A stretch of DNA of 57,019 nucleotides from Thermoplasmatota archaeon (GCA_965234725.1 CBDDUX010000047.1:1-57019), one strand, 5' to 3'; counted from the first letter of the stretch, positions 4,854 through 16,068 are shown. Notes: generated from the sequence alone by a model not told the origin. Made by a program: numbers and translations.

Positions 4854-4873
4854 AATTGGAGATAAATGTCATA

Positions 4874-4903
4874 GGTCCGGTTTAATCATCCGGACCCTTT
4901 TTT
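4874..4903 (+). terminator. hairpin plus T-run terminator between convergent genes
   Basis: GGTCCGG/CCGGACC stem followed by CTTTTTT. Confidence 0.65.
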
Positions 4904-4920
4904 CTCATTATTATGCTGCT

Positions 4921-6000
4921 CTATATCTCTACTATATCGCTCATATCGTAGAATTCGCCAGTTAATACATTGAAGAACGAATCCTCATCAGTATCCCATA
5001 ACAACGGAGAGGTATTGAATCGATATTCCTCCAGGTTAGATAGGCCGTCAGGTCTGTAGATCAGAACATATCTACTTCCGTTTTCGAAATGGATCACACT
5101 CTGGACATCGATATCCATCGAAGCATCAGACGGATCCAAAGGATCAAGGAATGCGATCCTGGAGAGGTGATAGTAGTTCAAAACGTAGGAACTATCGGGA
5201 ATGAAGTAACCGTTCACCACCCTCTCCTCTTCTGAAAGGACCTCTACATCTTCCACTTGGAGATCACCTGACTCATCAAAGAACATTTCAACTAACTCTC
5301 GGCCGAAATGAAACTCCCATCCATCATCCATTCCGTCGTTGTCAGTATCCGATAAGGACGGATCGGTTGTTACTCTTTCCATAATCCTTTGATTATAAAT
5401 TCGAAAGTCCACATGGAAATGAAAACCACCTTTCATTGCTATCTCAGTAGCGTTGAGTTCTGGGCTCAGTCCCCCGAATACGGGGTCGCTCTCGTTGAAA
5501 CATCATCTCTCAAAATCATATTCCGCACCCCCGCAGTATTCCCTGAGGTTGAAAAGGGATTCTTCATCTGATATTTCCCCATCATGGTCTGCATCGAATC
5601 CATCTCCATCCGGATTCTCGAATGCATCCTTTACCAATGGATCAAGGGTCCATTTCATCAATTGAGGATCCCATTTCCTGTTGAGGATCTCCCAACCGTC
5701 TTCCATTCCGTCTCCGTCCGTATCCGGATCATAGGGGTCGGTTCCGTATTCATTGATCTCTTCCACATCCGACAATCTATCCGGCCAGATCACAACCGTC
5801 TCATCGATCATCAACCTGTCGGAATCCGCTTTTTTTATAGCACGGTCAAAATGCGAATCCTCCCATCTCATATTATCATCGAGGTATTTTGTTCCATTTG
5901 AAGGTGGAAAGAAATGGAAGTAGAGGGGCCCGGATGCAATAATGATGAACAAGATGAGGATCGAAATTTTAATTCTCCCTCTGTTCTTCTCATACATCAT
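4921..6000 (-). pseudogene. membrane-anchored DxDGDG (TSP3/binary-toxin-like Ca-binding) repeat protein interrupted by one in-frame TGA
   Basis: ORFs 5503-6000 and 4921-5436 share a frame and are separated only by TGA at 5503-5505; both halves carry DTDxDGMxDGWE, DGLSNLEEY-type motifs. Confidence 0.7.
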
Positions 6001-6152
6001 CCCTATCTCCTTACTTCCCCTTGGATCTTCGATCCTTTATTGGGATATTTAAAAAGGACCTTCACATGAACTTGATCCGTTTTTAAAGAGCGATATTTAT
6101 AATTATAAATATAGTTTATACTTAATAATTCTCTTATAATCACAGATCAATG

Positions 6153-6397
6153 TAGTTATCAGGCCCTGGATGGCCCAAATACAAGAAAGAAATGACAACC
6201 TTCATCTGTTCACCCAACAGGTCCTCGCCTCACGGGTCAGTTGGTACCTGAGGGGGGGGATTCCGGCTGAAGAAGTCGGAGAGGAGCGGGAACTGAGCGA
6301 TCAGGCTCTGCGGAGGAGAGGAGAATGCCAACACAGGGGCAGGGGGTCTACCTACACCCCCTGCCCTGCTACTTCCGAACGGAGGTGGCGATAATTG
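6153..6397 (+). ncRNA. candidate structured non-coding RNA of unknown family
   Basis: Terminal stem 6153-6160/6390-6397, at least six internal hairpins with G-U pairs on the + strand, GCGA tetraloop, upstream TATA-like AT tract, downstream T6. Confidence 0.55.
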
Positions 6398-6470
6398 ATT
6401 TTTTAAACATCTCTCACAAAGCTTACTTAGCTTGTTGTCTCATTTACCTCCTCTAAAATGGGTGACAGAA

Positions 6471-7577
6471 ATGACAAGCGAGGTTTTCATGGCTGACCTT
6501 CGATCCAAAGGAAATGAGTCCAATACCGTCACGAAGGTCAAGAGATTATTTGATGAAGCTGGTCTGGCCAGTATAATAAGTAAAAAGGACCTAACTGCGA
6601 TCAAGCTCCATTTCGGCGAGAGAGGTTCCGATGCTTTCATCAATCCTATTTTCGTGAGACAGGTCGTGGAGAAGATCAAGGAAGGGGGTGCCAACCCGTT
6701 CCTGACTGATTCCAACACCCTTTATCGGGGTGACAGGCACAACGCAGTGGACCACCTGATAAATGCCATAGAGAACGGTTTCGATTTCTCGGTAGTAAAA
6801 GCTCCACTGATAATCGCTGACGGTCTGAAATCCAAGGATGTCAGTTGGATAGACATCAATGGAAAGCATTTCCAGAAGGTCAGGATCGCTGCAAATATCG
6901 CGCAGGCCGATTCCATGATCACCATGTCACACTTCAAAGGACACATCATGGCTGGTTTCGGAGGGGCGATAAAGAACCTGGCCATGGGGGGAGCCTCTGC
7001 TTACGGAAAGATGGACCAGCATTCAGTGAGGCCGGAAGTGATAGAAAAGAAGTGCATCGGCTGCAGGATGTGTATGAAGATCTGTCCCGTAAATGCCCAT
7101 ATCTACGAGAATGGCAAGGTCCATATTGACAAAGAGATCTGCATCGGATGTGGTGAGTGTATCATTGTCTGCCCCCAGGAAGCGATAGGTCTTGACTGGT
7201 CTTCGGAGATAGTACCTTTCCAGGAAAGAATGGCAGAGTACGCTCATGGGACCACTGTGGGAAAGGAGGGGAGGATCGGTTATTTCAATTTCCTCACCAG
7301 AATATCTCCTCAGTGCGATTGTTTCTCATGGTCCGATTACCCGATAGTTCCAGATATTGGAATACTTGCATCGAAAGACCCAGTTGCTATAGATAAGGCG
7401 TCCTTCGACCTGGTAAATCAACAGAGGGGATTCAAACAATCATCACTTAAAAGCGGTTGGGAACCCGGTGAGAACAAGTTCAAAGGCCTGAAACCGGAGA
7501 TAGATGCGGAGTATACTCTGAGATATGCAGAAGAATTGGGTATGGGTTCAACAGAATATGAGCTGATAAAAATATAA
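6471..7577 (+). CDS. DUF362 domain protein with 2x[4Fe-4S] ferredoxin insert
   Basis: AIKLHFGE, SHFKGH..AGFGGAIKNLAMG, two CxxCxxCxxxCP motifs, CDC, DPVAIDKA. Confidence 0.92.
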   Translation: MTSEVFMADLRSKGNESNTVTKVKRLFDEAGLASIISKKDLTAIKLHFGERGSDAFINPIFVRQVVEKIKEGGANPFLTDSNTLYRGDRHNAVDHLINAIENGFDFSVVKAPLIIADGLKSKDVSWIDINGKHFQKVRIAANIAQADSMITMSHFKGHIMAGFGGAIKNLAMGGASAYGKMDQHSVRPEVIEKKCIGCRMCMKICPVNAHIYENGKVHIDKEICIGCGECIIVCPQEAIGLDWSSEIVPFQERMAEYAHGTTVGKEGRIGYFNFLTRISPQCDCFSWSDYPIVPDIGILASKDPVAIDKASFDLVNQQRGFKQSSLKSGWEPGENKFKGLKPEIDAEYTLRYAEELGMGSTEYELIKI

Positions 7578-14165: not shown

Positions 14166-16068
14166 GTGTGCCGGGCATGTCTGGCATCTTGGGGGTGCAA
14201 GTCCCCTATACAGCCTGGTGGAGGCGAAGTATTAGCGACTCGCAAGGGCATCATCGTGAGGTGCTGTCTGAAGGAAGCGATAGCAAAGTCGTGACCTGAC
14301 GAACAGGAACTGGATACAAGGCAGTTGCAGACGGACGAGCGTGCAAATCACCGCAAAGTCCACCATCCACCAAGTTCTGCCGCTGTAAATCCAGCAGGTT
14401 ACGAGGAAGGAGGTCAGACTTACCCCGGGAGGTCTGCAACGTGTCCATACAGGACTGAGGCAACCGCGAGATTGCCCTATTGCGTTGCAGAAGTCAGCAG
14501 AGGGCATAGTAGGTTTGGGGCTATTACCCTGATAAACCGAAGGCCCGAACGATATGAAGTGGTAAGTAGGATATGGTTCTCATGACAGGAGAGCAGCAGA
14601 AAACCGATTTTGATACGCCCTCCGTTGGTAACCGGACGAGTGAAACTCGGATGGAACCGGATAGGGCTGAACCTGTTTTGACGAGCAATGGTACCGAAAA
14701 CCCTGCGAAACGCGGTTTTGTGATAGAACATGACCATTTGATGGAGGAGATTATAGGGTATGAGAACAGACAGGACGCTTTGAAACGAGTAATCCGAAAC
14801 AAGGGGAGTCCAGGTGTGGATGGAATGACCCTGAAGGAACTTCCTTTTTATCTCCAGGAAAACTGGAAAGATATTGAGGAACAGCTTCTCCAGGGGACAT
14901 ACAAGCCATCTCCAGTCCGGCAAGTGGAGATACCCAAGCCAAGCGGAGGAATTCGCAAGTTAGGTATTCCCACTGTTCTGGATCGATATGTTCAGCAGAT
15001 GGTCCTTCAGGTCCTTCAACGGTATATCGATCCGACCTTTTCGGACAGTAGTTTTGGATTTCGTCCGAATCGATCCGCTCACCAGGCGATTGCCCGGGCG
15101 CAGGAACACATACAGGCAGGATATCGTTGGGTGGTGGACATTGACCTGGAGAAGTTTTTCGATCGGGTCAATCACGATGTATTAATGTCCCTTCTTGCCA
15201 AACGCATCAGGGACAAACGGGTTCTGAAGCTCATCCGAGCTTTTCTGAATTCCGGCGTGATGTCCGATGGACTGACAAGCTTTAAGACTGAAGGCACTCC
15301 CCAGGGCGGTCCACTTTCCCCTCTTCTGTCCAATGTAGTTCTTGACGTTCTTGACAAAGAACTTGAACGTCGTGGTCATCGCTTTGTTCGTTATGCAGAT
15401 GACTGTAATATCTATGTCAAGAGCGAACGGGCGGGTTCCCGAGTGATGGAAAATATTACTCGTTTTCTGGGCAAGAAGTTGAAACTGAAGATTAATGAAC
15501 AGAAAAGCGCAGTAGGCAAACCCGGTGCTCGTAAATTCCTCGGTTTCAGTTTCTTGCTTGGAGATAAAGTCAAGCGCCGAATAGCTCCACGATCCCTGAA
15601 GAAGTTCAGGTCCCGGGTCAGGGCAATAACCAAGCGTAATCGTGGTTGGAACCTTGAGTATGTTATCCAGGACCTGAATCGTTATTTGCGGGGTTGGCAT
15701 GGTTATTTTGGTTTCTGTGAAACTCCATCCATACTGGCAAAGCTGGATGGCTGGATAAGGCGACGTCTTCGCAGTCTTTCATGGAAACAGTGGAAGACCC
15801 CCCGAAATCGTCGAAAGGAACTGAGATCCCGTGGCATTTCAGGCAAGTCTCTGAAATCGGCCTCAAGTGGGAAAGGTCCCTGGCGGATGGGTGCGTCTCC
15901 AGCAGTTAACCATGCATTACCCAACGGTTACTTCAGGTCCCTCGGTCTCTATGAGCTTGGTTCTCCTCGGTCGAAGTAGTTTCGCACAATCATATCGAAC
16001 CGCCGTGTACGGTTCCGTATGCACGGTGGTGTGACAGGGACAGTCCGTGAGGACCTACCTATGTCGAT
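14166..16068 (+). mobile_element. group II intron, class C (IIC), apparently full length
   Basis: 5' GTGTGCCGGGCATG; GGGGGTGCAAGTCCCC and AAGTCAGCAGAGGGCATAGTA motifs; short DV with CGC triad (GAACCGCCGTGTACGG...CACGGTGGTG, ~15997-16032); DVI ending ...ATGTCGAT at 16068. Confidence 0.92.
14573..15979 (+). CDS. ltrA: group II intron reverse transcriptase/maturase, no endonuclease domain
   Basis: NKGSPGVDG, IPKPSGGIRKLGIPTV.DR, DLEKFFDRV, GTPQGGPLSPLL, RYADD, FLGF, maturase X domain LN.YLRGW.GYF. Confidence 0.97.
   Translation: MVLMTGEQQKTDFDTPSVGNRTSETRMEPDRAEPVLTSNGTENPAKRGFVIEHDHLMEEIIGYENRQDALKRVIRNKGSPGVDGMTLKELPFYLQENWKDIEEQLLQGTYKPSPVRQVEIPKPSGGIRKLGIPTVLDRYVQQMVLQVLQRYIDPTFSDSSFGFRPNRSAHQAIARAQEHIQAGYRWVVDIDLEKFFDRVNHDVLMSLLAKRIRDKRVLKLIRAFLNSGVMSDGLTSFKTEGTPQGGPLSPLLSNVVLDVLDKELERRGHRFVRYADDCNIYVKSERAGSRVMENITRFLGKKLKLKINEQKSAVGKPGARKFLGFSFLLGDKVKRRIAPRSLKKFRSRVRAITKRNRGWNLEYVIQDLNRYLRGWHGYFGFCETPSILAKLDGWIRRRLRSLSWKQWKTPRNRRKELRSRGISGKSLKSASSGKGPWRMGASPAVNHALPNGYFRSLGLYELGSPRSK

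Follow-up and report, generated by a model that had tools for sequence, protein, structure and literature searches.

A tightly folded RNA of about 250 nt upstream of the DUF362 gene in four genera of uncultured Thermoplasmatota

RESULTS

A strand-specific fold between an AT-rich promoter-like region and a DUF362 gene

The window, by which we mean the whole 57,019-nt stretch of Thermoplasmatota archaeon DNA that was analysed, carries a structured element on its plus strand at 6153-6397 (Table 1), and downstream of it a gene whose protein matches Pfam DUF362 (8.9e-53) and holds a 4Fe-4S dicluster insert. An earlier note had taken the element for a novel multi-hairpin non-coding RNA encoded on the plus strand, be it a free-standing RNA or a leader for the DUF362 gene, a proposal that is supported by the Rfam, covariation and open reading frame (ORF) tests presented here, and its coordinates and sequences are all borne out in the window. 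The GC-rich island that it placed after an AT-rich stretch is seen as a GC content of 0.61-0.64 at 6200-6349 versus 0.24-0.29 at 6050-6199, the genome mean being 0.454 (45.4%). Upstream of the element TTTATA lies at 6115-6120 and TTATAA at 6134-6139, and the T6 run lies 3′ of it at 6399-6404, in agreement with that description. Two features had been missed, namely a translated-looking short ORF in the relatives and a promoter-like box belonging to the DUF362 gene itself.

The plus strand of 6153-6397 has a minimum free energy (MFE) of -105.8 kcal/mol as compared to a mean of -85.2 (sd 5.0) for dinucleotide shuffles, corresponding to z = -4.13 with 0 of 200 shuffles as stable. As the reverse complement reaches only z = -0.66 and is matched or surpassed by 52 of 200 shuffles, the fold is beyond chance and strand-specific, and the plus strand likewise has the more negative z in 11 of 12 homologues (25 shuffles each). 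The near-complete folding claimed for this strand is reproduced by the MFE fold, which contains the closing stem together with every hairpin that the earlier note had named.

Table 1. Features of the element and its surroundings (positions in the window)
Feature	Position	Strand	Sequence and remarks
AT-rich promoter region, several TATA-like boxes	6081-6141	+	TTTATACT 6115-6122, CTTATAAT 6133-6140
Closing stem	6153-6160/6390-6397	+	TAGTTATC / GATAATTG; MFE fold
Closing stem, 5′ strand	6153-6160	+	UAGUUAUC, partner 6390-6397; MFE fold
Hairpin H1	6162-6175	+	GGCC-CUGGAU-GGCC; MFE fold
Purine/A-rich linker	6176-6203	+	Holds AUG 6192 and conserved CCUUC 6199-6203
Vestigial short ORF	6192-6251	+	AUG..UGA, 19 codons, no good Shine-Dalgarno
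Junction-closing helix	6200-6203/6318-6321	+	CUUC:GAGG; helix 1 of the g1 clade consensus
CTGTT/AACAG hairpin	6206-6220	+	MFE fold
Long irregular hairpin H2	6221-6261 (6221-6232/6249-6261)	+	GUCCUCGCCUCA ... UGAGGGGGGGGAU; MFE fold
Variable hairpin H3	6262-6280	+	UCCGGCU-GAAGA-AGUCGGA; MFE fold
Hairpin H4, GNRA loop	6284-6308	+	GAGC..CUGA-GCGA-UCAG..GCUC; MFE fold
Purine motif	6312-6325	+	GGAGGAGAGGAGAA; family consensus approximately GGGGAAAGAGAGGAGAGAG; resembles Shine-Dalgarno, mostly unpaired
GC-rich hairpin H6, 11 bp	6337-6366 (6337-6347/6356-6366)	+	MFE fold
Hairpin H7, 9 bp, loop GAAC	6368-6389 (6368-6376/6381-6389)	+	Genus g1 only
Closing-stem 3′ strand and U6	6390-6397 and 6399-6404	+	Likely 3′ end
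DUF362 proximal region	6418-6473	+	BRE/TATA-like box AAAGCTTACTTAG 6418-6430, Shine-Dalgarno GGGUGA 6460-6465, ATG 6471

The element lies outside the known RNA families

In keeping with the claim of novelty, the element has no match at gathering score in Rfam 15 (4227 models), and over the whole window the same search returned only group II intron domains, two of them, at 14250-14545. At E<=10 the region 6000-6520 yields six sub-threshold matches, the best of which, a microRNA hairpin model lying on the minus strand over the 11-bp hairpin, scores 23.5 bits against a cut-off of 71. The ten homologous loci from relatives that were compared with Rfam gave 0 matches. The earlier note had seen no RNase P, SRP or tRNA identity, and this agrees with Rfam at gathering score and with ARAGORN, which finds 0 tRNA or tmRNA genes in 5900-6600. 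Neither archaeal RNase P RNA (RF00373) nor archaeal SRP RNA (RF01857) matches at the element, and the genome carries its RNase P RNA (189.1 bits) and its SRP RNA (144.1 bits) on other contigs.

A single-copy element in tandem with DUF362

BLAST of the element against 61 related genomes returned a single full-length copy, 84% identical, from G004, a member of the same genus; synteny was then used to find further copies. Orthologues of the DUF362 protein are present in 21 of the 24 family genomes, and the layout found upstream of them is an AT-rich trough followed by a GC-rich island of 150-290 nt. This layout occurs in genus g1, to which the window belongs (G000, G004, G003, G001, G002), in genus g6 (G014, G023, G009, G022, G021), in g4 (G012, along with G007, where it is reduced to 145 nt, and G016, which keeps the last hairpin only) and in g7 (G010); it is missing in g5, g2 and g3, where a different gene abuts DUF362. 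The distance from the element to the DUF362 start codon is 45-150 nt, the upstream neighbour changes while the element-DUF362 tandem stays, and the reduced forms in G007 and G016 remain at the DUF362 promoter.

With R1, a covariance model of the 3′ domain of the element, 14 of the 24 family genomes, distributed over four genera, have one strong match each (33-93 bits). Thirteen of these matches adjoin a DUF362 gene on the same contig. The 14th, that of G018, is at the end of a contig, and behind it come the opening codons of a DUF362 reading frame. Thirteen genomes that belong to the class but not to the family gave no R1 match at E<=1e-4. The weak secondary matches of R1 (20-28 bits) were considered as paralogues and rejected, being coding regions or ordinary hairpin and U-run sites behind genes. 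In the window's genome nhmmer with the g1 alignment likewise detects a single copy (E 4.5e-63; next best 0.05), and a metagenome scan with the DUF362 alignment gave 57 loci, 3 of them carrying the element. The element is single-copy and always adjoins DUF362, and what lies there is a tightly folded RNA of about 250 nt, belonging to no known family, upstream of a DUF362 gene in four genera of uncultured Thermoplasmatota.

Compensatory change maintains the structure

Of the 61 pairs predicted, 9 are changed between the window and G004; each of the nine still pairs and none of the 61 is broken. Eight of the differences are one-sided, of G-C/G-U or A-U/G-U type, and the remaining one is a CG-to-UA double change. 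Read on the other strand, several of these differing pairs would be C-A. The alignment of six g1 sequences gives a consensus of 41 pairs in 6 helices, in which 88.6% of cells are paired versus 82.2% in shuffles and 12 pairs carry double changes versus 6.1 expected, a number reached by 0 of 500 shuffles; when the partner is moved by 1-3 columns as a slide control, pairing falls to 44-63% (maximum 62.6%). In the same manner the alignment of five g6 sequences gives 69 pairs with 89.1% of cells paired versus 86.8% in shuffles, 8 double-change pairs versus 2.8 (0 of 500 shuffles) and 36-51% paired in the slide control (maximum 51.3%). Both structures were derived from the alignments in which the pairs were then counted, which favours them, and the samples are small and made up of related sequences. 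Covariation, to which the earlier note had looked as the check on its RNA, is present in two separately aligned clades, above both the shuffle and the slide controls: the pairing is maintained by compensatory change and the structure is under selection.

The 16 elements available come from about four genera, between which alignment is unreliable. RNAalifold found no consensus in a MAFFT alignment of the 3′ domains from all 15 elements, the alignment being too poor, and the pair counts from model R1, which was built on this alignment (71.6% paired versus 65.0% shuffled, covariation 0.229 versus 0.134, 0 of 500 shuffles), are weak because R1 re-aligned the sequences almost as in its seed.

Helices and motifs of the element

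Among the helices listed in the earlier note, those additionally supported by variation are H1, the long stem H2, H3, H4, the 11-bp stem H6 and the 9-bp stem H7, and those least supported are the closing stem, which lies outside the clade consensus, and the CTGTT/AACAG hairpin, which is invariant and occurs in two genomes only. The closing stem is absent from the g1 clade consensus and degraded in G004, where an alternative stem uses the bases that replace the U-run; G004 and G001 are nevertheless able to form a closing helix at the same place from other sequences. The clade consensus also adds a helix that the earlier note did not name, the CUUC:GAGG helix closing the central junction, with 91.7% of cells paired and one-sided changes only. 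A GCCUUC(A/G)U motif is conserved across genera.

Across clades hairpins are found at equivalent places with different stems. At the position of H1 the relatives have GAGGCCC/GGGCCUC, GCCGG-GAAA-CCGGC (GCCGG/CCGGC) or GCGU/ACGC, and at that of H2, which differs from G004 by one CG-to-UA double change and several GU/GC changes, they have GGUCC...GGAC hairpins. The sequence of H3 is different in each g1 genome and the hairpin is formed in all of them, with double changes in 3 of 5 pairs (clade helix 3). H4, with double changes in 3 of 8 pairs (clade helix 4), has GGGCCCCGG/CCGGGGCCC as its g6 counterpart, and its stems across the clades are CUGA/UCAG with GAGC/GCUC, CCGGAGAG/CUCUCCGG, GAACGGA/UCCGUUC, GGGCCCCGG/CCGGGGCCC and CGCUCCCG/CGGGAGCG. 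The most conserved hairpin of the family is H6 (clade helix 5, 89.4% paired), which reads GGGCGGGG..CCCCGCCC in g6, g4 and g7, and H7 (clade helix 6) has 98.3% of cells paired with double changes in 3 of 10 pairs. The purine motif between H4 and H6 is found in 15 of 15 aligned elements.

A short open reading frame in the 5′ part

The ORF at 6170-6394, whose codon-level conservation would have argued for a protein, is ruled out as a 74-codon gene by frameshifts in G004 and by the differing open frames of the relatives. Indels of 1, 2 and 2 nt separate the window from G004, such that the frame is not conserved and the open frame of G004 switches midway to another frame of the window, and among the relatives the long open frames show no homology with one another.

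The 5′ part of the relatives has a different kind of frame: a strong Shine-Dalgarno (SD) sequence (GGAGGUGA or GGGGGUGA), a start codon 5-8 nt further on and a short ORF. An SD at this spacing is present in 10 of the 16 listed elements, with the short ORF, in g6 (6 genomes), L036, G012, G010 and G003. In g6 the ORF has 15 codons in all six genomes, encoding MKRKNPKDPHNHAFV and near variants, with UUG, UUG, GUG, AUG, CUG and AUG as starts and UAA or UGA as stops. In the five close genomes the variable sites are distributed 1, 1 and 7 over the three codon positions and 6 of the 8 variable codons show synonymous changes only, a binomial estimate for at least 7 of 9 sites at one given codon position being P about 0.008. 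This codon-level selection indicates that the short ORF is very probably translated in g6, where, in the consensus structure, its final eight codons and the stop pair with strands further 3′. Conservation of the peptide does not extend from one genus to another, the ORFs having 4, 15, 18, 27 and 33 codons of unrelated sequence, and in G007 and G001 there is no start codon near the SD-like motif.

The positional counterpart in the window is the 19-codon ORF of Table 1, which differs from that of G004 by 4 non-synonymous changes and 1 synonymous change (counted by hand). With its AUG at 6192 lacking an SD and this 4:1 excess, it looks like a relic. By codon comparison, the short ORF appears decayed in the window's genus and under coding selection in g6.

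With the short ORF and 12 nt on each side forced unpaired, thermodynamic prediction kept the terminal hairpin in 11 of 11 elements, with no sign of an antiterminator.

Promoters, ends and transcription

The promoter region of the element has a GC content of 0.24, and a block within it (..TAATAATTCTCTTATAAT..) aligns with TAAAATnCTCTTATAW at a fixed distance from H1 in g1, g6, g4 and L036. Given the several TATA-like boxes, the predicted 5′ end may lie anywhere from about 6113 to 6162, and if the TATA box at 6133-6140 is the one used, the closing stem would be partly upstream of the start and hence partly untranscribed. At the other end, the genome contains 36 stringent sites in which a GC hairpin is followed by T6 or longer. 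In three family genomes, including that of the window, such hairpin and U-run sites follow coding regions at three weak model matches, and this therefore looks like the ordinary transcript ending of the family. A purine motif of the GAGAGGAG type precedes just 1 of the 36 sites and so is no general terminator feature. The U-run of the element is replaced or absent in G004, in G002/L038 and in the strain of RNA contig X1.

The DUF362 gene appears to have a promoter of its own. Of 23 regions upstream of DUF362, 21 carry an AT-rich TATA-like 8-mer at -40 to -49 relative to the start codon, and as all 6 regions without the element are among these 21, the element is not needed as a leader. The archaeal TATA box usually has its centre some 26-27 nt before the start site, and this spacing predicts, for DUF362, its own promoter with a leader of about 15-20 nt that carries the SD. 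We found no significant pairing of the element with the region around the DUF362 translation start (z from -2.3 to +1.2), and of the 16 elements just two share words with the DUF362 leader, those of G021 (11 nt) and L036 (9 nt).

Two metatranscriptome runs, which contain small shares of the window, yielded one contig each. The first, of 241 nt, covers 6118-6360 and is a G004-type variant, the differences of which lie in loops or preserve pairs, and it begins at 6118, upstream of the predicted start. The second, of 225 nt, covers 6320-6544 and joins the 3′ part of the element, with the U-run replaced, to the DUF362 coding region. Assembled contigs carry no information on ends, strand or level and could derive from DNA, and uncovered parts are uninformative, and so the two hint only weakly at expression of the region and at read-through where the U-run is absent.

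DISCUSSION

The element is a structured regulatory or small RNA outside Rfam, about which a search by title and abstract found nothing in print. No paper was found in which DUF362 is treated together with a riboswitch; judged by title and abstract, no such RNA was among the matches listed for non-coding RNA in Thermoplasmatota, and only bacterial systems or tools were among those listed for archaeal leader-peptide attenuation. To our knowledge few structured RNAs of about 250 nt exist in Archaea beyond the universal ones, and we regard archaeal cis-regulatory RNA as poorly charted.

We tentatively propose, with rather less than even confidence, that the plus-strand stretch from about 6145/6161 to 6404 is a lineage-specific structured small-RNA gene of about 245-260 nt, forming a separate unit that acts in cis on DUF362. 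The element would be transcribed from its own conserved and strong upstream promoter block. The transcript would then either stop at the GC hairpins and oligo-U, leaving a stable closed RNA, or read across the DUF362 promoter to give a long mRNA with a structured leader, and the balance between stopping and read-through would set the expression of DUF362. In the relatives, translation of the short ORF may influence this balance, as the 3′ half of the ORF is paired into the central junction. We infer the action in cis from the tandem synteny kept in four genera with a variable upstream neighbour, from the repeated loss of the U-run, from the RNA contig that bridges the element and the gene and from the reduced forms that are still located at the DUF362 promoter. 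Against it stand the predicted promoter-like box of DUF362 itself, the terminator-like hairpin and U-run that end most copies in the manner of ordinary genes, the pairing of the two termini, a property in keeping with a stable, autonomous RNA, the lack of an antiterminator in the ribosome-occupancy folds and the lack of a pairing signal with the DUF362 start region.

This evidence against cis action makes a trans-acting or dual-function small RNA a serious rival, possible in our judgement and on the unlikely side. The RNA would be free-standing, dual-function where the short ORF is intact, and stabilised by the pairing of its ends, and its unpaired purine motif or the loop of H6 would contact other RNAs, the anti-Shine-Dalgarno end of the ribosome or a protein, possibly DUF362; adjacency to DUF362 would then reflect co-regulation or a functional partnership. 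The conserved promoter-like block of the element, the hairpin and U-run end resembling those behind ordinary genes, the closing helix linking the 5′ and 3′ ends and the TATA-like box that DUF362 possesses all fit an RNA of this kind, as do the conserved, mostly unpaired and element-specific purine motif and the absence of an antiterminator alternative in the ribosome-occupancy folds. What such an RNA does not readily account for is the DUF362 tandem kept in four genera while the upstream neighbour changes, the loss of the U-run in several lineages, and the rewiring of the central domain between genera (G012, G007), which would be unusual given a fixed partner.

A third possibility, which we regard as doubtful, is that the element is an archaeal translation-sensing leader or, alternatively, that the RNA serves the DUF362 protein as a dedicated partner or decoy. 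As a translation-sensing leader, ribosomes on the short ORF would remodel the RNA, and the remodelling would select between a stable small RNA and continuation into the DUF362 Fe-S gene. The partner or decoy version has a loose analogy in aconitase/IRP1, an iron-sulfur protein that binds iron-responsive RNA hairpins. The resemblance to bacterial leader-peptide attenuators (trp, his, trpL) lies in the SD and short ORF at the 5′ end of the relatives, with its 3′ part paired downstream, in the GC hairpin and U-run before the gene, and in a terminated product that could be a functional small RNA; the Sinorhizobium trpL attenuator also yields the sRNA rnTrpL and the peptide peTrpL (PMC7298713, PMC7968998). 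Unlike these attenuators, the element is archaeal, has a body of about 150 nt with 4-5 hairpins that is larger than an attenuator needs, and carries a decayed short ORF in the window's genus. A run of regulatory codons is lacking in the g6 peptide MKRKNPKDPHNHAFV, and the peptides of the other genera are unrelated to it; mutually exclusive terminator and antiterminator folds were not found among the predicted folds, 11 of 11 of which keep the terminal hairpin. The element thus fails on three defining features of a leader-peptide attenuator proper: regulatory codons, alternative folds and, by prediction, the lack of an intervening promoter. We know of no leader-peptide-type attenuator described in Archaea, and were the translation-sensing reading true, this would be the first.

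It is improbable that the transcript is simply the mRNA of a very small protein (15 residues in g6), with the GC-rich hairpins as its 3′ UTR and terminator. Codon-level conservation with turnover of the NUG start across the six g6 genomes, and an SD at 5-8 nt from the start in 10 of 16 elements, are what such an mRNA would predict, but the peptides are unrelated between genera (4, 15, 18, 27 and 33 codons), the SD-like motif of G007 and of G001 has no start codon close by, and an SD is lacking in the window. Furthermore CCUUC, the purine motif and H6 are more widely conserved than any peptide, and the hand count of the window ORF against G004 is 4 non-synonymous changes to 1 synonymous.

A ligand-sensing riboswitch within a long DUF362 5′ UTR is very unlikely. 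The position upstream of a single gene, the multi-stem junction, the GNRA loops and the terminator-like 3′ module would all suit one, and there are bacterial riboswitch and leader RNAs that remain as small RNAs after termination, to which the element is similar in being structured, in tandem upstream of one gene and terminator-like at its end. Unlike such RNAs, the element lacks a conserved aptamer core, a regulon and a known ligand, and its downstream gene keeps a predicted promoter, the promoter-like box lying between element and gene. The junction architecture is not conserved across genera, G012 closing the three-hairpin junction differently and G007 being without H2 and H3, and there is one copy per genome; this rewiring and the missing regulon make a riboswitch unlikely, and ribosome-occupancy folding gave no alternative fold. 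That the element has no function of its own, being GC-rich by chance, a terminator cluster or the coding sequence of the 6170-6394 ORF, is scarcely credible, for while GC-rich DNA yields long open frames and stable folds, and the weak secondary matches of R1 are ordinary gene terminators, the strand-specific fold beats dinucleotide shuffles, compensatory changes occur in two clades, synteny is conserved across four genera, and the 74-codon frame is broken in the closest relative, the open frames being non-homologous.

The element ties an RNA of about 250 nt with compensatory support to one uncharacterised enzyme family, DUF362, and contains an embedded short ORF that appears under coding selection in one genus and in decay in another. 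It offers a testable case in which a small archaeal transcription unit, translation of a leader ORF and termination at a hairpin and oligo-U may be coupled to a gene, and may give a handle on what DUF362 proteins respond to. According to PMC11770544, DUF362 shares a Pfam clan with the N-terminal domain of LarA.

Comparative genomics has brought up OLE, raiA, HEARO and ROOL as structured RNAs of unknown function. The element is similar to this class in its many hairpins, covariation support, narrow taxonomic range and unknown function, but it has no Rfam match (4227 models), is archaeal and is strictly linked to one gene family. Finally, its 3′ module (H6/H7 and U6) has the same form as the 36 terminator-like sites of the genome; what sets the element apart from them is the conserved structure of about 190 nt ahead of its hairpins, together with the purine motif. 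A weak R1 match in G011, L118, also resembles the 3′ module, but it stands at the end of an apparent small gene.

Possible hairpin and U-run ends in the genome and at locus L118 of genus g2

A stringent search of the whole genome to which the window belongs returned 36 sites where a run of at least six T follows a perfect GC-rich hairpin, and the 30 nt upstream of these are purine-leaning, with a mean of 0.61. This Thermoplasmatota lineage may commonly use bacterial-style ends of this hairpin and U-run type. A low-scoring match of covariance model R1, which was built on the 3′ domain of the element, falls at locus L118 in genus g2, a genus without the element at DUF362 (see table). The open frame of L118 ends in a purine tract, then GGCGGGGGG..CCCCCCGCC and then a U-run, an arrangement that closely resembles the 3′ module of the element. 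L118 may be either a small gene with the same type of terminator or a distant relative of the element.

Features around the element and in related genomes
Feature	Location	Strand	Description
Terminator-like hairpin	window 4873-4902	+	GGTCCGG..CCGGACC then T6; directly after 354-residue ORF ending 4853
Two ORFs	window 4921-6000	-	171 and 165 residues; between 354-residue gene and element
Group II intron RNA domains	window 14250-14545	+	Rfam group-II-D1D4-3, 129.5 bits; group-II-D1D4-1, 54.1 bits
Conserved block	~75 nt upstream of hairpin H1 in L022, L023, L110, L021, L024, L036		two TGAATTT(T)A-like repeats ~20 nt apart, then TAAAATnCTCTTATAW
L118, weak model hit	G011:C470 (genus g2)		GGAGGUGA-AUG then open frame

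Upstream and promoter regions

Both minus-strand ORFs of the window, the second of which (165 residues) weakly matches a bacterial TSP3-repeat, are missing from the corresponding interval of the closest relative, G004, where the homologue of the 354-residue gene directly precedes the element. G004 also has, upstream of its element, a hairpin nearly identical to the terminator-like one of the window. In genus g6 and at L036 the conserved repeat block forms part of the promoter region of the element, and the block, with its TGAATTT(T)A-like repeats, may be bound by a transcription factor.

The DUF362 start and shared words

The 11-nt context AGAAATGACAA is common to the relic AUG, the start of the decayed short ORF inside the element of the window (6188-6198), and to the DUF362 start (6467-6477). 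At L017 in G021 (genus g6) the 11-nt AATGAGCCCAC is common to the loop of hairpin H6 (11 bp in the window) and the DUF362 leader. Neither sharing is a general feature: when 16 elements were put through a shared-word test against the leader, only 2 stood out.

By eye, most genomes have a small potential hairpin right before the DUF362 start codon (6443-6465 in the window and the equivalent site in relatives), in which the GGUGA-like SD pairs with an ACC(U/C) stretch lying upstream; this hairpin is also possible in some genomes without the element. The group II intron lies ~8 kb from the element, on its downstream side.
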